DNA of 38,595 nucleotides from Pseudomonas phage vB_PaeS-D14C. The stretch lies in the sequence record BK061477.1; one strand, written 5' to 3'. Both the position numbers and the translations under genes were made by a program. Shown here one piece after another: positions 5,172 to 32,827 of this stretch (positions within the stretch are counted from its first letter, which is position 1; every line of letters starts with the position of its first letter). Under the pieces are notes generated by a model. The model searched no databases. It was not told where the DNA came from and saw only the letters and a list, made by a program, of their open reading frames with translations.

Positions 5172-5357
5172 ATGCGCCCTCGTCTCACGAACTCTGACTA
5201 CGCCGCAATGGCTAACGCTGCTGAAGAGCTGGCGGGTATGGGGTCGAGTGAGTGGAGGCGCAGATACAACAAAGCCCTGAGCGACTACTACAGGGCTTTG
5301 TCGGTGCGCAAGCCAGTTGCAGCTGGCTTGCGCGTACAGCAATACATGGAGACCTGA
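5172..5357 (+). CDS. Small hypothetical protein, 61 aa.
   Basis: ORF tightly packed between the CII-like and HNH genes. Confidence 0.35.
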   Translation: MRPRLTNSDYAAMANAAEELAGMGSSEWRRRYNKALSDYYRALSVRKPVAAGLRVQQYMET

Positions 5358-5359
5358 GT

Positions 5360-6106
5360 ATGAGTTACAGAGAGAGCATTCGCAAGTCCGTGCGCTTTGA
5401 GGTGTTCAAGCGCGACAACTTCACTTGCCAGTACTGCGGCGCCAAGGCGCCTGACGTGGTCCTGCATGTCGATCACATCAACCCGGTGAGCAAGGGCGGC
5501 GACAACGAGATCATCAACCTGGTGACCGCCTGCCTGCCCTGCAATCTCGGCAAGTCGGATCGCCTGCTGTCGGACACCTCAATGCTGGATCGTCAGCGGG
5601 CCCAGTTGGAAGACCTGAACGAGCGCCGCGAGCAGCTGGAAATGATGCTGGCCTGGCGCGATGAGCTCCAGTCTTTCGGTGAAGAGACCGTACAGCTGAT
5701 TGCCGATCGCATCACCGCACGCATGGTCGGCCACTCGGTCAACGAGCACGGCAAGACGGTAATCCGCAAATGGATCAAGAAGTTCTCCGTCGAGGAGATC
5801 CTGGACGCCCTGGACATCGCCGCCGACAAGCTCAGCACTGCGCCCGATCAGGAGGAAGTGCTGGAGTGCTTCGATGCCATTCCTCGCATTTGCGTCACCC
5901 GGCGCCTTCCCGAAGCAAAGCAGAAAATGCTCTACGCCAGAGGAATCCTGCGCCGCCGGATTTATGTCAACGAAGCTCACGTCATGCCGCTGATGGCCAA
6001 GGCCATCGAGGCGGGTCTCGAGGTGGAAGAGCTGATCGAATTTGCGAAACAAGTGAAGAACTGGACCGAATTCCGGGCAGAGATGGAGGAAATCGCAAAT
6101 GGCTAG
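5360..6106 (+). CDS. HNH endonuclease-domain protein, 248 aa: N-terminal HNH plus a C-terminal domain of unknown function.
   Basis: FTCQYCGAKAPDVVLHVDHINPVSKGGDNEIINLVTACLPCNLGK is a canonical HNH motif. GGAGA lies 7 nt upstream of the ATG at 5360. Confidence 0.7.
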   Translation: MSYRESIRKSVRFEVFKRDNFTCQYCGAKAPDVVLHVDHINPVSKGGDNEIINLVTACLPCNLGKSDRLLSDTSMLDRQRAQLEDLNERREQLEMMLAWRDELQSFGEETVQLIADRITARMVGHSVNEHGKTVIRKWIKKFSVEEILDALDIAADKLSTAPDQEEVLECFDAIPRICVTRRLPEAKQKMLYARGILRRRIYVNEAHVMPLMAKAIEAGLEVEELIEFAKQVKNWTEFRAEMEEIANG

Positions 6107-12330: not shown

Positions 12331-12407
<77 letters not shown>

Positions 12408-12418
12408 ACTCGATTCAA

Positions 12419-12493
12419 TGACGTGTAGCTCAGAGGTAGAGCGGTCGGCTGTTACCCGACTGGTCGATGGTTCGATCCCATCCGCGTCAGCCA
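12419..12493 (+). tRNA. tRNA-Asn(GUU), 75 nt with CCA.
   Basis: Hand-folded: anticodon stem gtcgg/ccgac, loop ctgttac, T-arm gatgg ttcgatc ccatc, discriminator G73. Confidence 0.8.
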
Positions 12494-12497
12494 ATAA

Positions 12498-12573
12498 GCC
12501 GGTATGGCGCAACAGGGAGCGCTGCTGATTTGTAATCAGAGGGTTGCGGGTTCGACTCCTGCTGCCGGCACCA
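12498..12573 (+). tRNA. tRNA-Thr(UGU), 76 nt with CCA.
   Basis: Hand-folded: loop tttgtaa, T-arm gcggg ttcgact cctgc, discriminator A73. One G-A mismatch at the top of the anticodon stem. Confidence 0.7.
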
Positions 12574-14177: not shown

Positions 14178-14434
14178 AGAGTCACCCGATCCCTGCAGGA
14201 GTCGAGGTCAACACCAATCGGCCCTGGACGCCTGATGACATTGCTGGGTACAGCGGCGAGGTAGTGAGTGCCATGAAGGTTCTCGAGCCTCTGCTGCGCT
14301 CCGGACTGCTGGCGCTCCATCCTGATGAATGGCAAGGCGGAAAGCTCTCGTTCCTCAGACCGGCACAAGCTAGGCGGCAAGGCTGGAACCCGCAGGATCA
14401 GGCAGCCGGCAATCAGGTGTCTGGAAGTGCCTGA
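14174..14434 (+). CDS. Hypothetical protein, 86 aa.
   Basis: Track ORF; the C-terminal part may be non-coding. Confidence 0.3.
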   Translation: MKSHPIPAGVEVNTNRPWTPDDIAGYSGEVVSAMKVLEPLLRSGLLALHPDEWQGGKLSFLRPAQARRQGWNPQDQAAGNQVSGSA

Positions 14435-14471
14435 CCTCCCTCAGCGTCACACCAAGCCAAAGGTCAAGGGA

Positions 14472-14741
14472 GTGACCAAGCACGAGGTAGAGGACAAGGC
14501 ATGGGGGAACGGACGTGGTGGCAGGCCATGGCGTCGTAAGCGAGAGCGCATCCTCAAGCGAGATGGCTACATGTGCCAGTGCCCAGAGTGCAAGGGAATG
14601 AAGAGGATCGCCACAGAGGTGGACCACATCATCCCGCTGAGCCAGGGCGGCACAGACGATGACTCCAACCTGATGGCTATTGCTGGCTACCCGTGTCATG
14701 CGAGGAAGACGGCGAGGGAGTCGGCGGCATCTAGGAAATAG
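14472..14741 (+). CDS. Phage HNH endonuclease of the terminase-associated type, about 89 aa from a GTG start (ORF extends to 14325).
   Basis: YMCQCPECKGMKRIATEVDHIIPLSQGGTDDDSNLMAIAGYPCHARKT is an HNH motif. It sits immediately upstream of the cos and terminase region, as in HK97. Confidence 0.7.
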   Translation: MTKHEVEDKAWGNGRGGRPWRRKRERILKRDGYMCQCPECKGMKRIATEVDHIIPLSQGGTDDDSNLMAIAGYPCHARKTARESAASRK

Positions 14742-18574: not shown

Positions 18575-19465
18575 ATGACTCTGCGAAATCTTCCGGCAGC
18601 GCCGGAGGCTCGCCCGCGCTCGGGCGTCCAGTGCGACCTGGCGCCCAAAGCGCTAGATGCATGGCGTCCTGAGCTTCGAGCAGCTTCTGGCGATAACCCG
18701 GACTCCACGATCACCATCTACGAGCCGATTGGCTACGACTGGTGGACCGGTGAAGGTGTCACGGCAAAACGCATTGCTGGCGCTCTGCGCGCCATAGGCA
18801 GCGATGTCGATGTGACCGTGAATATCAACAGCCCCGGCGGCGATGTGTTCGAAGGCCTGGCCATTTACAACCTGCTGCGCGAGCACAAGGGCAAGGTCAC
18901 GGTGAACATCATCGGCCTGGCCGCCTCTGCCGCATCTTTCATCGCCATGGCGGGGGATGAAATCCGCATCGGCCGCGCCGCCTTCCTGATGATCCATAAC
19001 GCCTGGCTGATCGCCATGGGTAATCGGAATGATCTCCGGGAGATAGCCGATTGGCTGGAGCCATTCGACATGACGCTGGCTGACATTTACGCACAGCGCA
19101 CGGGAATCGACATCGACGACATCGTGAAGCAGATGGACGCCGAGACCTGGATCGGTGGGCGCGAAGCCGTCGACAAGGGGTGGGCAGATGCCTTCCTGGA
19201 GTCCGACGAGATCTCCAGCGCTCCCAGCAACCGCAGCGAAGCCATCCTGGCCAAGCGCCGAATGGATGCCGCCCTGGCTCGCAGCGGCATGCCGCGAAGC
19301 CAGCGCAATGAACTCATCAACGACTTCAAGACCAGCATGCTTGGCGCTGCTGGCGGGGGTGGTGACACCCCGACCGATATGCCTGGCGCTGTCGCTCCTG
19401 ACCTCTCCGCTGCACTACGGGCAGCACAAGACATCACCAAATTCCTCCAAGGAGAACCGCAATGA
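18575..19465 (+). CDS. Prohead protease (ClpP/S49-like, HK97 gp4-like), 296 aa.
   Basis: NINSPGGDVFEGLAIYNLL...AASAASFIAMAGDE is a ClpP-fold serine protease motif. AGGAG lies 6 nt upstream. Confidence 0.85.
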   Translation: MTLRNLPAAPEARPRSGVQCDLAPKALDAWRPELRAASGDNPDSTITIYEPIGYDWWTGEGVTAKRIAGALRAIGSDVDVTVNINSPGGDVFEGLAIYNLLREHKGKVTVNIIGLAASAASFIAMAGDEIRIGRAAFLMIHNAWLIAMGNRNDLREIADWLEPFDMTLADIYAQRTGIDIDDIVKQMDAETWIGGREAVDKGWADAFLESDEISSAPSNRSEAILAKRRMDAALARSGMPRSQRNELINDFKTSMLGAAGGGGDTPTDMPGAVAPDLSAALRAAQDITKFLQGEPQ

Positions 19466-20649
19466 GCGACTTCGAAAAACAAATCGGCGAACTGAACGCC
19501 AGCCTCAAGCAGGTCGGGGACCAAATCAAGTCCCAGGCCGAACAGGTAAACACCCAAATCGCCAATTTCGGCGAAATGAACAAGGAAACCCGCGCCAAGG
19601 TCGACGAACTGCTGACTGCCCAGGGCGAACTGCAAGCACGACTGAGCGCCGCGGAACAAGCCATGCTGGCCAACGAGAAGCGTGACGGCGGCGAGGAAGC
19701 ACCGAAGACCGCCGGCCAAATGTTCGCAGAGAGCCTGAAAGAGCAGGGTGTAACCAGCTCCCTGCGCGGCTCGCATCGCGTATCCATGCCGCGCTCGGCC
19801 ATCACCTCCATCGACGGCTCTGGCGGCGCCCTGGTGGCTCCTGATCGTCGCCCCGGTGTCGTTGCCGCTCCGCAGCGTCGACTGACCATCCGCGACCTGG
19901 TTGCGCCTGGCACCACTGAGTCGAACTCCGTCGAGTACGTCCGCGAGACCGGCTTCGTCAACAATGCCGCTCCTGTTTCGGAAAACACCCAGAAGCCGTA
20001 CTCCGACCTCAGCTTCGAGCTGGAAAACGCGCCGGTTCGCACCATTGCGCACCTGTTCAAGGCAAGTCGCCAGATCCTGGACGACGCATCGGCCTTGCAG
20101 AGCTACATCGATGCGCGTGCTCGTTACGGCCTGATGCTGGTCGAAGAAGGTCAACTGCTCTACGGGAACGGGACCGGCGCCAACCTGCACGGCATCATTC
20201 CGCAGGCACAGGCCTACGCGCCGCCGAGTGGCGTAGTGGTAACCGCCGAGCAGCGAATCGATCGCATCCGCTTGGCGATCCTTCAGGCGCAACTGGCCGA
20301 GTTCCCGGCCAGCGGTATCGTGCTCAACCCCATCGACTGGGCGCTGATCGAGCTGACCAAGGACGCCGAGAACCGCTACATCATCGGCAGCCCGCAGAAC
20401 GGCACCACTCCGACCCTCTGGCGTCTGCCGGTGGTGGAAACCCAGGCCATCACTCAGGACGAGTTCCTGACCGGTGCGTTCTCTCTCGGCGCCCAGATCT
20501 TCGACCGCATGGACATCGAGGTTCTGGTTTCCACCGAGAACGACAAGGACTTCGAGAACAACATGGTCACCATCCGCGCCGAAGAGCGACTGGCCTTCGC
20601 GGTCTATCGCCCCGAAGCGTTCGTCACTGGCTCGCTGACCGCCAGCTGA
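19462..20649 (+). CDS. Major capsid protein, HK97 family, with an N-terminal delta (scaffolding) domain, 395 aa.
   Basis: Coiled-coil N-terminus, HK97-fold C-terminal region, and overlap with the protease stop. Confidence 0.9.
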   Translation: MSDFEKQIGELNASLKQVGDQIKSQAEQVNTQIANFGEMNKETRAKVDELLTAQGELQARLSAAEQAMLANEKRDGGEEAPKTAGQMFAESLKEQGVTSSLRGSHRVSMPRSAITSIDGSGGALVAPDRRPGVVAAPQRRLTIRDLVAPGTTESNSVEYVRETGFVNNAAPVSENTQKPYSDLSFELENAPVRTIAHLFKASRQILDDASALQSYIDARARYGLMLVEEGQLLYGNGTGANLHGIIPQAQAYAPPSGVVVTAEQRIDRIRLAILQAQLAEFPASGIVLNPIDWALIELTKDAENRYIIGSPQNGTTPTLWRLPVVETQAITQDEFLTGAFSLGAQIFDRMDIEVLVSTENDKDFENNMVTIRAEERLAFAVYRPEAFVTGSLTAS

Positions 20650-20655
20650 CTGGAA

Positions 20656-20684
20656 GGGGCCGGGAGACCGGCCCCTCTTTCTTT
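20656..20684 (+). terminator. Rho-independent terminator after the capsid gene (ggggccgg gaga ccggcccc tctttctttg).
   Basis: Perfect 8-bp GC stem plus T-rich tail. Confidence 0.6.
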
Positions 20685-20693
20685 GAGGTGGTT

Positions 20694-20981
20694 ATGCCTG
20701 ACGTAATGATCAAGCCAATTCGCTCATACCTGGACGGCGGTCGCGTGAGAAAGGCTGGTGGTGATGCATACCTTGCATCCGAGCATCTGGCTCGCCAGTT
20801 GGCGGCGCGCGGTCTTTGCCAGATTGTGGAATCAGAGATCCCAAAGCCTGTGGCTGGCGAGTCGCTGTCTGCCTCGCAAGTGGCCCCAGCCTCACAGCAG
20901 AAGACTGCGAACGAGTCAGAGAATGGCGGGACTCCTCGCCGCAGAGGGCGGCCATCTGCACGAACACAACGTTCCGACTGA
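20694..20981 (+). CDS. ORF with a good start (GAGGTGG RBS, ATG); probably the true 5' part of the MptE/DUF115-like gene, then disrupted by a frameshift.
   Basis: The N-terminal 40 aa look protein-like; the C-terminal part is low-complexity. It overlaps the next ORF by 166 nt in another frame. Confidence 0.35.
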   Translation: MPDVMIKPIRSYLDGGRVRKAGGDAYLASEHLARQLAARGLCQIVESEIPKPVAGESLSASQVAPASQQKTANESENGGTPRRRGRPSARTQRSD

Positions 20982-21412
20982 CCCCATGGGCTGATGCACT
21001 GTGGGCAATGGATAAGGCCTGGTGGGAGAGATACGCCGCCGAGGCTAAAGCAAACTTCTGTGGTGAGCTTCTGACACTGAGCGCCAATCCCTTCGGAATA
21101 AAGACGGCGCGCATCGAGCACTACAGGAACTCAGGCGGCGGCGCAGTTTCCTTGGCCATCGCCAGGGGTGCTAAACGCATCATCCTGCTGGGCTATGACA
21201 TGCAGAAAACCAATGGGCAATCGCACTGGCACGGCGACCACCCGAAGGGGCTTGGGAGCGCCGGCAAGATCGCGGAGTGGCCGTCCGAGTTCGAGCGCCT
21301 GAAGCGCAACAACCCGACAATCGAGATCATCAATTGCACTCGCGAAACAGCGCTGACCTGCTTCGCTCGACGCCCGCTGGAGGAAGTGCTGAATGAGCAT
21401 GATCCCGCTTGA
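20816..21412 (+). pseudogene. MptE-like / DUF115 (Maf-like, putative glycosyl or nucleotidyl transferase) reading frame with no ATG start; likely frameshifted continuation of 20694.
   Basis: Motifs VAVCLASGPSL, AAICTNTTF, ADALWAMDKAWW and GGGAVSLAIARGAKRIILLGYDM...GQSHWHG match the DUF115 pattern as recalled. The frame is open from 20765 and the only start before the GPSL motif is TTG with no RBS. Confidence 0.45.
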
Positions 21413-21713
21413 TACAGCAAAGTCCTTCCTTGATGTGATCCATGACTGGGATGACACCAAGCTCCAATTGCTGCTGGACGGGGCCGAAGACGAGGCCTGC
21501 CAATTCATGTGGCGCGAGTCTCTTGATGGCCTTTGCAACTGCGAAGAGAGCAGCGAGGTGGTCAGCAGCGAGCCAGGCATTCCGCCTAGCGTGGTCATCG
21601 GAGTGCTTCTTTTGCTTCAGGCCAGCTATCAGGCTGCTCCCGATGAAATCGCAACGCTGCGCAAGGCGGCCGAGGTGAAGCTGATGCCGTACCGATGCGG
21701 CTTGGGGGTTTGA
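21393..21713 (+). CDS. Head-tail connector protein (gp6-like, Phage_connect_1), 106 aa.
   Basis: LDTAKSFLDVIHDWDDTKLQLLLDGAEDEACQFM follows the gp6-like consensus. Confidence 0.6.
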   Translation: MSMIPLDTAKSFLDVIHDWDDTKLQLLLDGAEDEACQFMWRESLDGLCNCEESSEVVSSEPGIPPSVVIGVLLLLQASYQAAPDEIATLRKAAEVKLMPYRCGLGV

Positions 21714-22070
21714 ATGCTGGCCTACCGTATGCGCCACCGCATTCAGTTCCAGCGGCAGGTCCACGAACAAGACCCCGACACGGGAGAAGTGACAACGACC
21801 TGGGAGGCAGTTCTGTTTTCCGGTCGCCTTGATGTCCCCGCAGAGGTACTGACCGGGCCTGGTCGTGAATTGATTGCCGCCGATGCGCCACAGGCCGAGA
21901 CCACTGCTCGCATCAATTGCCGGTGGTTTCCGGTTGATCGCTTGGAGCTCTACACCTGGCGGGTCATCTGGGATGGCCGAGTCTACAACATCACCAGCGC
22001 AGAGACCGATGTCACCGCTCGCCGTGAGTGGCGTCTGCGCTGTTCTGATGGATTGACGGACGGCCGGTAA
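21714..22070 (+). CDS. Head closure / head-tail joining protein (gp7/SPP1 gp16-like), 118 aa.
   Basis: The C-terminal WRVIWDGRVYNITSAE...REWRLRCS pattern is typical of Phage_H_T_join. Confidence 0.6.
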   Translation: MLAYRMRHRIQFQRQVHEQDPDTGEVTTTWEAVLFSGRLDVPAEVLTGPGRELIAADAPQAETTARINCRWFPVDRLELYTWRVIWDGRVYNITSAETDVTARREWRLRCSDGLTDGR

Positions 22071-22275
22071 CTATTTGGCCCGAAAGGGCGCTCAACACGC
22101 AGCTAGGCCCGTACAGCCGAACGGCGGATGTCCGCTCATCCGTCCGCCCCGCTGCGTCTCTACTCGGCCGCCAGGCCAATCAAATAAGCAGGCTAGGTTC
22201 GCTACCGAAAAGGGTCGGTCCGCTCCGCCTACGCCCCTGCCTGCTTACCTATTCCAGGCGGAAGGAGCTATATCC

Positions 22276-22998
22276 ATGACCGATGTTATTCAGCTTGTTC
22301 ACTCCGCCGGCGAGGCGCGCGTCGATAGTCGCGTGATTGCCGAGCAACTAGGGGTTAAGCACAAGCACAGCTTTGCCCTTGTCACGCGCTATCAGCGGAA
22401 GTTTGAGGAACTTGGCCAACTGCCGTTTCAAAAGGAAGTTGGTCGGCGGGCCCAAGGCGGCGGCAGGGCTGAGCGTTTCGCATTGCTGAATGAAGATCAG
22501 GCGTACTTTCTCCTGAGCCTTTCCCGGAATAGCGACCTGGTGGTCGACCTCAAGCTCCGGCTGGTGAAGGCTTTCCGCGACGCCCGTAATCAAGCCGGCC
22601 TGGACAGCGTGATGGGTATGATCCTGCTGACGGCTCCTGCTCCATGGGAGAAGCGCTTCGGCGATGACTACTACCGTGCTCTGGCCAGGATCACCGGCAC
22701 CGTTTTCGAAGGTCATGCCAAGGGAACGCCGGCTATCTATGGCCAGATCACCGACCGCTGGATTTACGCCGCCATCCTGCCGAAGGAGGTGCATGCCGAG
22801 CTAAAGGCTCGCCGCGGTGAAAGCGAAAGGATGCACCAGTGGCTGACCGATGGAGGCCGTGATCGGCTCGACCAGCAAATCCGCATGGTCACGCTGATCG
22901 CGGATAGTTCGATTGACCGCAAAGACTTCGAAGCTAGGTGCATGCAGGCATTCGGGCTGCCGGGCCAGCTCCGCCTGATCTATCCGCAAGCCGCCTAA
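22276..22998 (+). CDS. Rha-family regulatory protein with a C-terminal P63C-like domain, 240 aa. A moron inside the structural module.
   Basis: The N-terminus LVHSAGEARVDSRVIAEQLGVKHKHSFALVTRYQ is Rha-like. GGAAGGAGC lies upstream of the ATG at 22276, after a 205-bp non-coding leader. Confidence 0.65.
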   Translation: MTDVIQLVHSAGEARVDSRVIAEQLGVKHKHSFALVTRYQRKFEELGQLPFQKEVGRRAQGGGRAERFALLNEDQAYFLLSLSRNSDLVVDLKLRLVKAFRDARNQAGLDSVMGMILLTAPAPWEKRFGDDYYRALARITGTVFEGHAKGTPAIYGQITDRWIYAAILPKEVHAELKARRGESERMHQWLTDGGRDRLDQQIRMVTLIADSSIDRKDFEARCMQAFGLPGQLRLIYPQAA

Positions 22999-23017
22999 CC
23001 CCGCCCTGACGAACGAA

Positions 23018-23049
23018 AGCCCGCCTTGAGCGGGCTTCGTCGTTTCTGG
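23018..23049 (+). terminator. Rho-independent terminator after the Rha-like gene (agcccgc cttga gcgggct tcgtcgtttct).
   Basis: Read directly. Confidence 0.5.
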
Positions 23050-23059
23050 AGATCATGAA

Positions 23060-23419
23060 ATGACCGACGAAGCAATCGAACAAGAAATCCAAGCCAAGGG
23101 CCTGACTGCGCCACGCATCACGCCGGCAGACATCGAGGCGAATATCGCTGGCGAGTACTACTTCACTGCGGCTGATGGTGTGAATCAGAGGCCTGACTGC
23201 AATCCTGACGCCGTGGTTGCGGGCGTACATGGATCGCTCGGCCTGCTGACCTTCTGCGTACTGGTACTGAAGAACGGCTTCACCGTCACCGGCGAGTCGG
23301 CCTGTGCGAGCCCGGCGAACTTCGACGCGGAGATCGGCCGGAAAATCTCCCGGCAGAATGCCGTCTCCAAAATCTGGCCACTGATGGGCTACGAACTGCG
23401 TAGCAGACTGGCTGACTGA
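23060..23419 (+). CDS. Gp49-like protein (Phage_gp49_66 family), 119 aa.
   Basis: LKNGFTVTGESACASPANFDAEIGRKISRQNAVSKIWPLMGYEL matches the N4 gp49 / Sf6 gp66 family as recalled. Confidence 0.6.
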   Translation: MTDEAIEQEIQAKGLTAPRITPADIEANIAGEYYFTAADGVNQRPDCNPDAVVAGVHGSLGLLTFCVLVLKNGFTVTGESACASPANFDAEIGRKISRQNAVSKIWPLMGYELRSRLAD

Positions 23420-23422
23420 TCC

Positions 23423-24250
23423 ATGCTGATCCGTGGAATGCTCGGCCTCGGCGACTCGATCTATTCCAGGGCATTCCTGAGGAAGTACCCAGGCGCATTC
23501 CTCGAAACACCCTGGCCAGAGCTTTACCTCGACCTCGACGTGAAGTGCGTTCGCCCGGCGACGCAGTTGAGAACCCAGGCCAAGAACATCCAGCGCGAGC
23601 ACGACTGGCACCGCCCTGTCGGCGGCGGCCAAATGCGCATCGCCTACGGCCGAGACCCGATCATTCAGGGGCTGCGCAAGGCGTTCCGTTGCGAACCCGG
23701 CGAGTTCGACCTGCCGGACTTTGGTCCTCCGCCAGTCGATGGGCGCTATGTGCTGGTTCGCCCAGCCACGGTTCGCGCTGAGTGGCGCGCAGACACGCGC
23801 AACCCACTGCCTGAGTACATCGCCAGCGCTGCCTCAGAGATGCGCCGCAGGGGCTGGAAAGTGGTTTCCGTTGCGGACTTGGAGCCGGGCAAGGAATGGG
23901 CCATCGATCCACTCCCGCCGGCAGACATCCAGTTCCACAAGGGCGAACTGCCGGTTGAACAACTGCTGGCGCTGCTCCAGCACGCAGATGCCGTGATTGG
24001 CGGCATAGGCTGGATTGTTCCGGCCAGCATCGCCGCCAAGGTTCCGGCCTGGATCATCTGCGGCGGTCAGGGCGGATACAACTCGCCGGAGCACATCACC
24101 GACAAATGCATGGACCTGTCCCGCATCACCTTCGCGGTTCCTGACAGGTTCTGCCGCTGCACCATGAAACAGCACACTTGTGACAAAAGGATCGCCGATC
24201 ATGACGCACGCTTTGCCGCCTGGGCTGACCGACTGCCTGCTCTGGTCTGA
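23423..24250 (+). CDS. GT-B glycosyltransferase, family 9 (heptosyltransferase)-like, 275 aa.
   Basis: N-terminal GLGDSI resembles the GT9 ALGDV motif. C-terminal VIGGIGWIVPASIAAKVPAWIICGG resembles the GT9 DTGxxHLAAAxGxPxVxLFGP region. Call is low-confidence. Confidence 0.45.
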   Translation: MLIRGMLGLGDSIYSRAFLRKYPGAFLETPWPELYLDLDVKCVRPATQLRTQAKNIQREHDWHRPVGGGQMRIAYGRDPIIQGLRKAFRCEPGEFDLPDFGPPPVDGRYVLVRPATVRAEWRADTRNPLPEYIASAASEMRRRGWKVVSVADLEPGKEWAIDPLPPADIQFHKGELPVEQLLALLQHADAVIGGIGWIVPASIAAKVPAWIICGGQGGYNSPEHITDKCMDLSRITFAVPDRFCRCTMKQHTCDKRIADHDARFAAWADRLPALV

Positions 24251-24818
24251 AGAGCTTGGAATGGGTTTCCACCCTCGTCCTCCGATGGACTATAGCGGGC
24301 CGTACTTCGAGAAGTATCAGGTGCTCGATGCGACCCCGATGGGCGCCGCGCTGACCCAGGCCCGTATTGATCTGGTGCGCCGTCACTTTACCGGCCAGGT
24401 GGTAGACATCGGTATCGGCGGAGGCCGTTTCGTCACCGAGTCCGGCGCTATGGGTTTCGACGTGAACCCGGAGGCGGTGGACTGGCTTAAGGCGCAGGAG
24501 CGCTACTACGACCCGTACCAGCACCACGTAGAAGCCGTGACCTGCTGGGACAGCCTGGAGCACATTCCCGAGCCGGAGAAGCTGCTCGACCACGTTGGCG
24601 AGTGGCTGTTCGTGTCGATGCCGATCTACAAGGATCAGATCGACTGCCTGGCCTCCAAGCATTACAAGCCGGGAGAGCATTGCTGGTATTGGAGTCTCCC
24701 TGGCCTGGTTGCCTGGTGCGAGCGTCAAGGTTTCGAATGTGTCGAGCTAAACGACCAGGAGTCGAAACTTGGCCGAGAAGGCATCACCAGCTTTGCGTTC
24801 CGGAGAGTCCATGGCTGA
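24201..24818 (+). CDS. Class I SAM-dependent methyltransferase (Methyltransf_23-like), about 205 aa.
   Basis: VVDIGIGGGRF is motif I and CWDSLEHIPEPEKLLDHV is the motif II/III region. AAGGA lies 9 nt upstream of the ATG at 24201. Alternative starts are 24180 (GTG) or 24261. Confidence 0.6.
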   Translation: MTHALPPGLTDCLLWSEELGMGFHPRPPMDYSGPYFEKYQVLDATPMGAALTQARIDLVRRHFTGQVVDIGIGGGRFVTESGAMGFDVNPEAVDWLKAQERYYDPYQHHVEAVTCWDSLEHIPEPEKLLDHVGEWLFVSMPIYKDQIDCLASKHYKPGEHCWYWSLPGLVAWCERQGFECVELNDQESKLGREGITSFAFRRVHG

Positions 24819-25284
24819 CGGCGTTGAGTTCAGCATCACCGGGCTTGAAGGCGTGCTCGAGAAACTCAGAACTCTTGGCCCGCGCCTCCAAAAGAACGGC
24901 CTGAGAAAAGCAGCCCGCAGGGCGATGAACATTGTCAGGGATGCCGCACGAGAAAAGGCGCGACTTGTCGATGATCCCGAAACACCAGAGAAAATCTGGA
25001 AGAACATCATCACTCAAGAGTCCGCCAAGCAGGGGCGGCGTGAAGGGGGGGTGGTGATGAAGGTTGGAGTGCGCGGCGGCGCTGGTCGAAACCAGTACAG
25101 CAAGGATGCAAGCGGAAATCCTGGTGGCGACACCAGGCACTGGCGCTATCTGGAGTTCGGCACCAAGTACTCGCCGGCGAAGCCATTCATGCGGCCTGCT
25201 CTGTCTCAAAACATTGAGTCCGTTACTGAAAAATTCATATCCGAGCTTGATGGCGAAATAGACAAGGCTCTAAGGGGGAGGTGA
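24811..25284 (+). CDS. HK97 gp10-family tail-component protein, 157 aa.
   Basis: NIVRDAAREKA...YLEFGT...AKPFMRPAL follows the gp10 family pattern. Confidence 0.6.
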   Translation: MADGVEFSITGLEGVLEKLRTLGPRLQKNGLRKAARRAMNIVRDAAREKARLVDDPETPEKIWKNIITQESAKQGRREGGVVMKVGVRGGAGRNQYSKDASGNPGGDTRHWRYLEFGTKYSPAKPFMRPALSQNIESVTEKFISELDGEIDKALRGR

Positions 25285-25649
25285 TGCATCCGCCAATCTT
25301 TAAGGTCTGCTCAAGTAGTCCCGCTGTTACCGCGATTCTCGGTGCGTCCCCGCTGAGGATGTATCAGTTTGGCCTGGCCCCCCAGCTCGTCGTCAAGCCG
25401 TACGCAACATGGCAGACCATATCTGGATCGCCGGAGAACTACCTATGGGGGCGCCCTGACGCCGATGGGTTCACCCTCCAGGTGGACATTTTCTCAGCCA
25501 CCGCTGCGGAAGCCAGAGATGCAGCAAAGGCCATCAGGGATGCAATTGAGCTTTCAGCCTATGTAGTCCGCTGGGGAGGGGAATCTGTTGATCCTGATAC
25601 CAAGACCTACCGAGTCAGCTTTGACATCGACTGGATAGTCCAGCGATAG
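25281..25649 (+). CDS. Tail completion protein (gp17-like / DUF3168), 122 aa.
   Basis: The pattern YQ...AP......P.....ISG.P......TLQVDIFS...A resembles tail completion proteins. Confidence 0.55.
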   Translation: MMHPPIFKVCSSSPAVTAILGASPLRMYQFGLAPQLVVKPYATWQTISGSPENYLWGRPDADGFTLQVDIFSATAAEARDAAKAIRDAIELSAYVVRWGGESVDPDTKTYRVSFDIDWIVQR

Positions 25650-25666
25650 ACACCTAAACCAATCAG

Positions 25667-25690
25667 CCCGCCACCGCGCGGGTTTTTATT
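25667..25690 (+). terminator. Rho-independent terminator (cccgc caccgc gcggg tttttatt) before the major tail gene.
   Basis: Read directly. Confidence 0.55.
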
Positions 25691-25712
25691 GCCTGCTACA
25701 GGAGAAGACGTT

Positions 25713-26872: not shown

Positions 26873-26969
26873 CCTGGCAAGGATGCTGGGTTCCTGTGCT
26901 GGCGCTCCGGTTGGCCAGGATGCTGGCTCCGTGCTAGATTCCGAGCGATCACCACCGGGAGGGTTGTTA

Positions 26970-27299
26970 ATGCGTAAGATATTGGTTGCTTCAATAGTTC
27001 TAACTGCTGTTTTAAGTGGATGCGCCTCTAGTGGAAAAGAGATTACGCAGGAGCAGGTGGATAGAATTGTGCAGGGACAAACAACTCAGGATCAGTTGAT
27101 TTCGATTTTTGGCAAGCCCATGGCGGAACAATACAATTCAGATGGGAGCCGTGTACTTACCTGGGGGTATGCCTATGTTGGGTTTATGGGGGCTGGCACC
27201 GAAACCCAGGGGCTTTCGGTAATTCTTGGTCCAGATGGAAAGGTTACAGGGTATAGCAGGGCAGGTTCCTCTCCATCCCCTGCAAGATTTGGTCGGTAA
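26970..27299 (+). CDS. Lipoprotein, 109 aa, with a SmpA/OmlA (BamE)-like domain. AT-rich moron.
   Basis: Signal peptide MRKILVASIVLTAVLSGC with an LSGC lipobox. QGQTTQDQLISIFGKP is BamE-like. GGGAGG RBS. GC content is clearly lower than the flanking tail genes. Confidence 0.7.
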   Translation: MRKILVASIVLTAVLSGCASSGKEITQEQVDRIVQGQTTQDQLISIFGKPMAEQYNSDGSRVLTWGYAYVGFMGAGTETQGLSVILGPDGKVTGYSRAGSSPSPARFGR

Positions 27300-27335
27300 G
27301 CTGTTTTAGTTTCTGATTTAATCGGCAGGTAAGAT

Positions 27336-27647
27336 ATGTTTGAGGAAGTTTATAATAATTGGGTTTATATTTTGTTTTTCGGGGTTTGGTTGGCGTCAAT
27401 CTCTGCGTATCTGGCAGCATCTCGCAGAAGAAGTATAGCCCTATGGTTTGTCTTTGGTTTCTTCGCTCCGATAATCGCCATACCTCTTATATTTATTCTA
27501 GGGGAAGATAAGCAAGCATCTGAACGCTCGTCTCGTCAGGCTGCAGTGGATGTCGGTATATCGAATGGTTTTAAGAAATGCCCATATTGCGCGGAAGCCG
27601 TCAGAGAGGAGGCTAAGCTATGCCGACATTGTCGGTCTGAGATATGA
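27336..27647 (+). CDS. Two-TM inner-membrane protein with a C-terminal CxxC...CxxC zinc ribbon, 103 aa. AT-rich moron.
   Basis: TM helices WVYILFFGVWLASISAYLAA and LWFVFGFFAPIIAIPLIFIL, then CPYCAEAVREEAKLCRHC. Confidence 0.55.
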   Translation: MFEEVYNNWVYILFFGVWLASISAYLAASRRRSIALWFVFGFFAPIIAIPLIFILGEDKQASERSSRQAAVDVGISNGFKKCPYCAEAVREEAKLCRHCRSEI

Positions 27648-31178: not shown

Positions 31179-31526
31179 GTGGCTGAGACCTTTTCTTACT
31201 GTACGCGCCTTGGAGCTACCGGCGAGACTGCTCAACGCACCTGGCAGAACGACCTCGGGGATGGATACGTTCAGTCCGGCGGAACGGGGATCAACACCAG
31301 ATCCGAGACCTGGGATGGAATGACGATCATCGGGCGCCTGGAGGCTGGTGATGATCTCCTGGGCGCCCGCGCCTTTCTGGACCGGCACGAGGGGTACAAG
31401 TCGTTCCTATGGACGCCCCCTGGCGGCGCACAGGGTCGATACCGGTGCAATGGATACAAGCTGAGGCCGTTGGGTGGAGGGCTGTACGAACTGAGTTTCA
31501 CGTTCGTCCAAGTCTTCTACCCGTAG
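31179..31526 (+). CDS. Minor tail protein M (lambda gpM family), 115 aa.
   Basis: LGDGYVQ, KSFLWTPPGG and FTFVQV correspond to lambda gpM FGDGYSQ, KSFLWTPP and FEQV. Confidence 0.8.
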   Translation: MAETFSYCTRLGATGETAQRTWQNDLGDGYVQSGGTGINTRSETWDGMTIIGRLEAGDDLLGARAFLDRHEGYKSFLWTPPGGAQGRYRCNGYKLRPLGGGLYELSFTFVQVFYP

Positions 31527-32108
31527 CAACCAACCATGAGCGGTTATGCCGCGGGAGAGAGGAATGAACACCCAAACTACCACCAAAGGTCAGGCTATTA
31601 AAAGCCAAGCTGTAGACTCGAAAGGAAATCCAGCTTGGCTTTTACGCTCTGACGGTCAAATCGTGATTTCGGCGCAGTTCGTAAAAGATAGCGCCGTGAC
31701 CAAAGCTGTTATTCGCGGTTGATATTTGGGATATCAAGAGTGTAAGTGCTTGGTATCACTCCGTCCGGAAATACCTTTTGGAAAATCTCTAGCACGAAGT
31801 TATCTCCTACACCTTGCTGCCTGCATGCCAGTGAAGCTTTTCGGGCGATGTGTCTTTGTTGGCTGCAAGAATCTTCTGTCGAGTCAGGGTGCCTCTGATA
31901 AATTCAAGACAAAGCATAAATCTCGGAGCGAGTTGAATGAGCACTTTTGCTTGTGAGTCCAACATGAGGGAGCTCTCAATGAGCACAGGTCGGCCCATTG
32001 AGGAGCTAAAGCAGGTAGTCGTGACTGAGTTAATGGTCAAAGCCGCGATGGATTATGTGCTCGGGTTATGGGATCGGGATGTCGACATTTTCCTGCTAGA
32101 GGATGTGT

Positions 32109-32726
32109 TCAGGATAATGGCAGTTCTTCAGCCTCGGCCTCTGGATATTCCAAAATTGACGAGCGCACCTTCTCAATGAGCTTGTCGAACTTGGATAGCG
32201 ATGCCGATTTAATTTCATCTGGAACACCGCATTCCAACAGCCCAGCAATAATGCCGAGCAGGTAGTAAACCTGCATTAAGTCGAGCGCGATTTTTCTAAG
32301 TTCAAGCAACGTTAGCGTTTCTGAGTAGGGCGTTCCGTCACTGTTCCTCTTTGTTGGATGGTAGATAGGGGCCTCGTCCTTGCCCTCTGGTGATAACCCC
32401 CAGGCCCAATGGACGATCTTGTTTCTCTGCGCCGTCATCTTCTTGAATGTGGACAGAGCGACATTCAGCCTTTCCGGTATGTCGATCGGTAACGGCGATG
32501 TTTCGAGAAGCTTTGTGACCGTTGCTGCTAATGAGGTCGAGCGGAGCCTTAATGATTCTACGACGACCGACTGGGTATCCGCTCTTAGTCCGCTTAGAAA
32601 ACCGAATATCCGCATGAGCGGTTCATCGCACAGGCTGTGATTGACCACGATCTGCCCGATTTCTGCCCGCATGGCAGAGTTTGGGCCCGCGTCGTATCTA
32701 TAGTTTGTGGTTCTTGGGTCTTCCAT
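32109..32726 (-). CDS. Hypothetical 205-aa protein on the reverse strand inside the tail cluster. AT-rich moron.
   Basis: GAGGAGG Shine-Dalgarno motif 8 nt upstream of the ATG (MEDPRTTNYRY...). Track ORF 32109..32789. No family recognised. Confidence 0.55.
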   Translation of the reverse strand: MEDPRTTNYRYDAGPNSAMRAEIGQIVVNHSLCDEPLMRIFGFLSGLRADTQSVVVESLRLRSTSLAATVTKLLETSPLPIDIPERLNVALSTFKKMTAQRNKIVHWAWGLSPEGKDEAPIYHPTKRNSDGTPYSETLTLLELRKIALDLMQVYYLLGIIAGLLECGVPDEIKSASLSKFDKLIEKVRSSILEYPEAEAEELPLS

Positions 32727-32827
32727 TCCGCTTGCCTCCTCGGCCCCTGGTCTCATCCAAGCACGGGAAGCTACCGCCAGAGCAAACATGCTGCCACTGG
32801 CATTTCATCCACGCTGTACAACCTTCC

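Follow-up and report, generated by a model that had tools for sequence, protein, structure and literature searches.

A moron hotspot and a three-enzyme glycosylation-type cassette in the head-neck region of a D3-like Pseudomonas phage

The DNA of Pseudomonas phage vB_PaeS-D14C (BK061477.1; 38,595 nucleotides (nt); this whole stretch is called the window, and coordinates given without another name refer to it) belongs to a D3-like (Detrevirus-type) Pseudomonas aeruginosa phage or prophage and carries, between its head-closure gene and a gene for an HK97 gp10-like neck protein, the interval 22276-24818. A preliminary description of this DNA had interpreted the interval as one insertion of about 2.7 kb with glycosyltransferase, methyltransferase and regulatory genes. 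We propose instead, with a probability of roughly one half, that the interval combines two unrelated things, a moron hotspot and two of the three genes of an enzyme cassette, and that the trio decorates a virion protein. The three genes, named as in phage D3, are orf7 for a Maf/DUF115-like transferase, orf12 for a GT9-like glycosyltransferase and orf13 for an S-adenosylmethionine (SAM)-dependent methyltransferase; we are highly confident that they form a conserved cassette of the glycosylation type. Three points are new: that the cassette is recognised as a portable trio, that it is set apart from the moron slot, and that one of its enzymes is predicted to be made by ribosomal frameshifting.

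A constant trio of genes beside a variable slot

The boundary between the two parts was drawn by the relatives of the phage. A megablast search with 20600-25700 matched 51 Pseudomonas phage records, among them those of D3, PMG1, PP9W2 and P7869. PP9W2 lacks exactly 22070-23428, and its GT9-like gene begins 8 nt after head closure. D3 shares 22070-22166 and 22988-23061 with the window and has a KilA-N gene in between, and P7869 carries between the same shared boundaries a different gene together with a gp49-like gene. In about 80 loci from IMG/VR, head closure and the GT9-like gene are 12 to 1701 nt apart. Since swappable cargo thus lies between fixed boundaries, 22071-23422 (1.36 kb, +), which in relatives is either empty or filled with other cargo, reads from these sequences as a moron hotspot that is no part of the enzyme system. 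The comparison with relatives lacking the insertion, which had been suggested in the preliminary description, therefore defined the boundaries of the slot and left the GT9-like and methyltransferase genes outside the variable part, these two being kept in all relatives with intact flanks. A single 2.7-kb insertion is not what the relatives contain, and the Rha/P63C and gp49-like genes, which had been counted as components of the system, are interchangeable moron cargo.

The three enzyme genes behave differently from the cargo. They occur together in all of the approximately 80 loci of IMG/VR whose flanks are intact, also in those whose capsid gene can no longer be recognised, and in each of these the methyltransferase gene follows the GT9-like gene, usually with an overlap of 50 nt. 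In the window the adaptor and head-closure genes and the slot lie between orf7 and its partners; in PAJU2-like phages and in locus L088 (related loci are denoted by L and a number) the order is head closure, orf7, GT9-like gene, methyltransferase gene and gp10-like gene, in L085 and Psp6 the three genes stand contiguously after the capsid and before the adaptor gene, and in the jumbo Klebsiella phage Eowyn the three make up an operon by themselves. This constant co-occurrence and the contiguity, which metagenomic phages show as well, argue that the three-enzyme module, as the preliminary description had supposed, is real. In all siphophage lineages examined the cassette is found between capsid and neck genes. 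In L089 a GT2-like gene takes the place of the GT9-like gene beside orf7 and the methyltransferase gene, as one would expect of a cassette that builds glycans. The pattern of distribution fits an accessory and portable device of this kind. In L003 (4921-5106) and seven other loci (200-nt gap) a small extra open reading frame (ORF), 61 amino acids (aa) long in P7869, lies between the GT9-like and methyltransferase genes, so that the usual 50-nt overlap is broken there; in L073 the gap is 376 nt.

The GT9-like protein (D3 orf12; 275 aa; 23423-24250, +) has the two-lobe GT-B fold, is closest to solved GT9 enzymes and begins with the catalytic N-lobe at residue 2. Of the earlier assignment to Glyco_transf_9 the fold thus stood and the sequence match did not: no Pfam family was hit at E <= 0.1, which leaves PF01075 unmatched, and no Pfam match was found among the 120 homologues listed. 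NCBIfam and PADLOC gave nothing usable, and a profile search of the PDB sequences with the family yielded none at E <= 10. With the BAHT profile TIGR04414 the protein scored 12.4 bits (E = 0.055), far from the equivalog cut-off of 200, and an hhalign comparison of the family profile with an approximate sequence of E. coli WaaC gave a probability of 0.14, too low for Asp11 of the phage protein to be equated with Asp13 of WaaC. In GT9 enzymes the catalytic aspartate is located in the loop after strand 1 (Asp13 in WaaC, Asp110 in TibC). C213, C244, C246, H251 and C253 are invariant in the GT9-like family; the iron finger of TibC consists of Cys339, 342, 358 and 370. From WaaC and WaaF, which act on the core of lipopolysaccharide (LPS), and from TibC and Aah, the protein O-heptosyltransferases of the BAHT type, the phage protein differs by the lack of detectable sequence similarity, by its size of only 275 aa and by having neither the N-terminal beta-barrel, which makes up residues 1-97 of TibC, nor the beta-hairpin thumb.

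The methyltransferase (D3 orf13; 24201-24818, +) is a class I SAM-dependent enzyme, as had been predicted. Its score with Methyltransf_23 was 44.7 bits (cut-off 27), it matched phrog_6564 with E = 2e-129, and its translation contains the glycine-rich motif I VVDIGIGGGRF; a search of the PDB sequences gave nothing significant. An AAAGGA ribosome-binding site precedes the ATG at 24201.

The Maf/DUF115-like transferase domain of D3 orf7 (20846-21412, +) has the fold of the Maf/DUF115 catalytic core, and its best match is a protein glycosyltransferase. The fold agrees with the MptE/DUF115 assignment made earlier; the sequence score with PF01973 does not reach the cut-off (16.3 bits with a gathering score of 34.6), and PF01973 was found in 5 among the 120 homologues listed. 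The orf7 family comprises 976 clusters, in which an N-terminal A-S-G-P-S motif after the first strand is invariant. Compared with the Maf flagellin glycosyltransferases (DUF115/PF01973; PDB 5mu5) the phage enzyme consists of only a core of about 180 aa instead of 632 aa, and its context is a phage rather than a flagellar glycosylation island. Relatives are found in Azotobacter, Microbulbifer, Enterobacter, P. putida and jumbo Klebsiella/Serratia phages. In a set of 50,697 phage records, 28 contained the GT9-like protein and 75 a member of the orf7 family.

The 75 records with orf7-family members include phage P1 with PmgO (33% identity, E = 5e-22) and phage P7 with HdmB. A "putative morphogenetic function" has been assigned to PmgO, PmgP and HdmB. 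PmgO belongs to the same family as the window's orf7 and is encoded in a late operon (LPpmgL); it is non-essential, P1 forming plaques without pmgO or pmgP, which is consistent with an accessory role. P1 differs in having two tandem DUF115 paralogues without a GT9-like or methyltransferase partner, and PmgO has its own ATG and lacks the frameshift arrangement with an overlapping ORF. PmgP was considered as a homologue of the methyltransferase and rejected; it is the second DUF115 paralogue, with GSGPS as its motif. In the P1 locus (L097, 3832-5115) PmgP overlaps PmgO by about 100 nt and the tandem paralogues are followed by the Ppp phosphatase; a small P1 ORF, pmgN, overlaps the start of pmgO.

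A predicted frameshift between orf6.5 and orf7

Directly downstream of the capsid gene lies orf6.5 (20694-20981, +; so annotated in D3), whose zero-frame product of 95 aa matches phrog_7993 over its full length (E = 1e-62); it has no match in Pfam, and a homology search gave 4 close relatives only. The family-invariant ASGPS of the Maf-like enzyme is encoded inside orf6.5, in the -1 frame (20876-20890). In phase with orf6.5 and 30 nt upstream of this motif is the slippery heptamer C_CCA_AAG (20840-20846, +), at which we propose a programmed -1 frameshift. The predicted fusion of 239 aa would be read from 20694-20846 and 20846-21412, its first approximately 51 residues coming from orf6.5, so that an N-terminal region of some 50 aa would be common to the small protein and the enzyme. 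The position of the motif in the -1 frame, the conserved heptamer, the missing start codons and the existence of fused homologues together make the programmed frameshift, in our view, the most economical explanation for a complete Maf-like enzyme, and we regard it as probable.

The heptamer is invariant in nine diverged sequences in which the 14 nt upstream of it vary. Upstream of the heptamer the zero frame is the better conserved (identity 0.36, as against 0.24 for the -1 frame), whereas downstream the -1 frame is (0.73, as against 0.56); the lead in conservation passes from one frame to the other at this site. Other lineages with overlapping ORFs have other heptamers, A_AAA_AAC in L085 and L095, C_CCA_AAC in L093 and T_TTT_TTG in Psp6. 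A canonical heptamer is present in 5 of the 6 lineages with overlapping ORFs and in none of about 9 in which the enzyme gene stands alone (hypergeometric estimate, p ~0.002); where orf7 has its own ATG there is neither an overlapping ORF nor a heptamer. Three homologues (P0237, P0152 and P0167) are single ORFs that join a domain resembling the N-terminal part of orf6.5 in frame to the enzyme. The 239-aa fusion predicted from the window is collinear with P0237 (E = 2e-60), and orf6.5 by itself aligns with the P0237 N-terminus (E = 6e-06).

The alternative is that there is no frameshift, that translation of orf7 begins at TTG 20816 or its product is truncated to 134-153 aa, as annotated, and that orf6.5 is an independent overlapping gene or no gene at all. 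We consider this improbable. It has in its favour that a TTG equivalent to that at 20816 is kept in most D3-like loci and could also initiate translation, and that gene callers give versions of 198 and 134 aa. A putative stimulatory hairpin (20853-20881, +), 6 nt 3' of the heptamer and with an 8-bp consensus stem, contains no compensatory pairs and has a single-sequence z-score of -1.6, so that no covarying structure speaks for frameshifting, and three loci (L089, L090 and L091) have the overlapping arrangement with neither a canonical or near-canonical slip site nor a start codon. These findings count against our proposal. What argues for it and against a plain start is that the truncated forms lack the invariant ASGPS, that in eight relatives (L029, L067, L073, L081, L084, L085, L095 and Psp6) the enzyme frame offers no ATG, GTG or TTG before the motif, and that in five of these (L067, L073, L085, L095 and Psp6) it opens just 3-15 nt before a canonical heptamer, to which the in-frame fused homologues and the switch of conservation from one frame to the other have to be added. 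In the lineage without a heptamer the small ORF and the overlapping enzyme gene occupy 5517-6313 in L089 and 1021-2024 in L091, L090 having the same arrangement; it is the lineage with the GT2-like gene.

The annotated orf7 products of D3 (152 aa) and PP9W2 (134 aa) both leave out ASGPS. The evidence for frameshifting would thus correct a widespread annotation error, which concerns D3 orf7 and hundreds of entries of 134-153 aa without the invariant motif.

Programmed -1 frameshifts are well known from phages, for example in the G/GT tail chaperone genes of lambda, in the capsid gene 10A/10B of T7 and in the addition of Ig-like domains. The predicted orf6.5-orf7 frameshift would resemble these in that a canonical X_XXY_YYZ site lies in a late gene, that the two products would share their N-terminus and that the longer one would be the scarcer. 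It differs in that what is added is an entire enzyme domain, not a structural or Ig-like one, and that the zero-frame product has only 95 aa. In the literature searched we found no case of a frameshift that attaches an enzyme domain in this way; if confirmed, it would be a new kind of recoding, in which frameshifting joins a whole enzyme to a small late protein.

Possible targets of the cassette

Profile searches gave the gene order capsid (19462-20649), orf6.5, orf7, head-tail adaptor (21393-21713), head closure (21714-22070; PF05521, 88.8 bits), HK97 gp10-like neck/tail-completion protein (24811-25284, +; PF04883, 33.9 bits; phrog_5), which is the right-hand anchor of the region, and tail terminator (25281-25649). 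This is the order expected. All genes listed in the preliminary description were present at or near the positions given there, and direct reading of the sequence bore out the overlaps by which it had linked the genes, 50 nt between the GT9-like and methyltransferase genes and 8 nt between the latter and the gp10-like gene, as ATGGCTGA. Promoter-like sites were not found across 20500-25500. The embedding of the enzymes in the late structural operon, also put forward in that description, is consistent with this and with the overlapping or abutting ORFs, and we infer that the three enzymes are expressed late.

We favour glycosylation of a virion protein, at about even odds, because of the Maf and TibC relatives, the position between capsid and neck genes, the N-terminal domain that orf6.5 and the fusion have in common, and the resemblance to a system in mycobacteriophages. 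For two of the enzymes, protein O-glycosyltransferases are among the closest relatives of solved structure, namely Maf, which acts on flagellin, and TibC, which acts on autotransporters. On the proposed route the three enzymes would be transcribed together with the late head-neck genes, and while the virion is assembled they would build a short methylated glycan on one of its proteins in the cytoplasm. Nucleotide-activated sugars made by the host would serve the Maf-like and the GT9-like enzyme as donors, each enzyme adding one sugar; to judge from their families, the donors could be a CMP-ulosonic acid (Maf-like) and ADP-heptose (GT9-like). The methyltransferase would cap the glycan. The -1 slip at C_CCA_AAG would fuse about 51 residues of orf6.5 to the Maf-like enzyme, and the N-terminal domain common to orf6.5 and the fusion could direct the enzyme to the place where it acts.

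In mycobacteriophages (Che8 and cluster F1; cluster O), glycosyltransferases and an O-methyltransferase modify capsid and tail-tube proteins, and the virion glycans reduce neutralising-antibody responses (Freeman et al. 2023, as summarised in PMC11600133 and PMC11256854). The cassette shares with this system the clustering of transferases with a methyltransferase (two transferases and one methyltransferase) and the accessory function. The F1 genes are near the 3' end of the genome and the hosts are Actinobacteria, whereas here the genes are among the head-neck genes; Maf-like or GT9-like members and a frameshift are not reported there, and here the modification is predicted from genes. If our proposal is correct, particle glycosylation would extend beyond the mycobacteriophages to D3-type prophages, which are abundant in clinical P. 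aeruginosa, and to their relatives. Since the mycobacteriophage glycans lower neutralising-antibody responses, the cassette would bear on phage therapy and serology.

Several findings weigh against a virion target. The Eowyn cassette is on the opposite strand and apart from recognisable structural genes, so that location in a structural module is not universal. In the fold comparison of the GT9-like protein the LPS enzymes WaaF and WaaC match about as well as TibC does. No significant match in sequence links this protein to a glycosyltransferase family; its catalytic competence is therefore deduced from its fold and its invariant residues. No acceptor protein was identified in the analysis, and the searchable literature yielded no report, by mass spectrometry or otherwise, of glycosylated D3-type virions.

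Two of these findings, the similar match of WaaF and WaaC and the position of the Eowyn cassette outside a structural module, would also be accounted for if the cassette remodelled the host envelope, the GT9-like enzyme attaching heptose and its partners attaching or altering further sugars on the LPS core or another surface glycan, thus blocking superinfection or the sticking of progeny to debris. We think this unlikely. The genes are in the late head-neck operon, where the lack of a promoter-like site makes expression in lysogens unlikely. The best match of the Maf-like enzyme is to a protein glycosyltransferase, and it is joined, by the predicted frameshift or in frame, to the N-terminal domain of a small ORF found after the capsid gene in several lineages. 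We also count against remodelling of the envelope that the known conversion genes of D3 are elsewhere in its genome.

Less probable still is that the substrate of the enzymes is a small molecule or nucleotide, for instance a host immune signal or a metabolite to be destroyed or modified, and that the cassette is an anti-defence or metabolic module that came to lie near the hotspot by chance; DUF115 does have kinase-like relatives, but late expression and the exchange of GT9 for GT2 fit poorly with such a role.

Hypermodification of the phage DNA, with bases being glycosylated and methylated as by the T4-type GT-B enzymes and recently described phage DNA glycosyltransferases, we regard as very improbable. 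Phage GT-B enzymes can put heptose or Kdo on 5-hydroxymethylcytosine, and the pathways of DNA hypermodification cluster with genes for C5-methyltransferases, 5mYOX or thymidylate-synthase-like enzymes (bioRxiv 10.1101/2023.12.21.572611); none of these three was found among 20 further ORFs of the window. The glycosyltransferase fold is that of GT9 and not of T4 beta-glucosyltransferase, the methyltransferase is of the Methyltransf_23 type and not of a DNA methyltransferase family, and the genes are placed among head-neck genes.

Within the virion-protein proposal a more far-reaching version can be formulated, in which we place little confidence. The portable cassette would glycosylate the virions of D3-like and many other Gram-negative phages, the first such case outside the actinobacteriophages; the Maf-like enzyme would be grafted by frameshifting to the N-terminal domain of a small protein associated with the capsid, so that enzyme and substrate or scaffold share a docking domain, and the glycan would be made perhaps from precursors of the inner core that are universal in Gram-negative bacteria, a CMP-ulosonic acid such as CMP-Kdo and ADP-heptose, and would then be methylated.

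The claim that such a module is undescribed holds in part. In the searchable literature we found no paper on the function of D3 orf7, orf12 or orf13, or on virion glycosylation in Pseudomonas phages, nor any other study of the cassette, and the P7869 paper makes no mention of the cassette genes. The genes themselves have been in GenBank since D3, some records naming GT9, methyltransferase or sialyltransferase, and glycosylation of virions is known from the mycobacteriophages.

Cargo of the slot and other features of the window

In the window the slot, which a conserved leader and a hairpin delimit, contains two genes. The first (22276-22998, +) encodes a protein with a Rha domain (PF09669, 43.3 bits) and a P63C domain (PF10546, 62.6 bits), which is DNA-binding or regulatory moron cargo; the gene is 99.3% identical in nucleotides to that of the unrelated phage YMC11/02/R656. 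Its leader (22096-22259, +) contains two tandem, marginal matches to the int-alpA RNA motif: with the covariance model RF02996 the copy at 22186-22259 scored 36.3 bits (gathering score 35.8) and that at 22096-22175 scored 22 bits. In 11 related loci no match to RF02996 exceeded the threshold. The 67 nt at 22093-22160, which overlap the copy at 22096-22175, are 97% identical in many otherwise unrelated P. aeruginosa phages (F10, CF24b and others).

The second gene (23060-23419, +) encodes a protein of the family PF13876 (gp49_66/gp49-like; 113.2 bits, cut-off 27). This is the Acb4 family, tetrameric sponges that sequester the cyclic nucleotides of the cyclic-oligonucleotide-based anti-phage signalling system (CBASS) (PMC11722364, PMC12265669). 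The product is, from its sequence, a candidate anti-CBASS cyclic-nucleotide sponge. It resembles Acb4 of phage SPO1 (PF13876; PDB 9E4W) in that the PF13876 threshold is far exceeded and that this protein is its best match among PDB sequences; it differs in that the pairwise similarity is weak (E = 0.097) and that the window gene is slot cargo outside the enzyme cassette. Membership in the Acb4 family probably explains the label "anti-CRISPR" in the P7869 record. The gp49-like protein of L013 has 225 aa, with an insert of about 105 aa between the N-terminal and core regions.

Between the two genes, at the right boundary of the exchanged cargo, is a terminator-like hairpin (23017-23037, +) of 8 bp. 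A terminator had been placed at 23018-23049; the hairpin is there, and its T tract is weak. Terminator-like sites are no commoner in the region than in shuffled sequence (5 found, 4.4 expected), and the support for this hairpin therefore comes from its conservation within the block 22988-23061 that D3 and P7869 have in common.

In relatives the slot holds genes for KilA-N, Rha-P63C, KilA-N-P63C and T5orf172-like proteins, gp49-like proteins of 119, 120 or 225 aa, and proteins of 167 aa, 418 aa (L029) and 161 aa (L071). D3-like and PAJU2-like phages alike have a cargo hotspot at the corresponding place (L001-L084). Several of the uncharacterised slot proteins could be anti-defence candidates, and the slot, once set apart from the cassette, may be seen as a hotspot that gathers anti-defence and DNA-binding cargo and is useful for mining counter-defence genes.

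Immediately 3' of the capsid gene there is a GC-rich hairpin (20655-20676, +) with a 9-bp stem, 8 pairs of which are GC, followed by the T-rich tail CTTTCTTTGA; it is likely an attenuator upstream of orf6.5.

What looks like a second moron slot is found at 26883-27647, between the tail chaperone and tape-measure genes. Its GC content is low (0.49-0.53), and it encodes a lipoprotein-like protein (lipobox LSGC, weak match to a BamE domain) and a 103-aa zinc-ribbon protein. Another low-GC stretch (0.49) at 31500-32800, inside the forward-strand tail module, has on the reverse strand an ORF of 226 aa (32109-32789) with no match in Pfam. Three clustered tRNA genes (Gly-TCC, Asn-GTT and Thr-TGT; 12331-12573) are located between the NinG-like region and the packaging genes, and two genes encode HNH endonucleases, one in the replication region (5252-6106) and one just upstream of the terminase genes (14325-14741).

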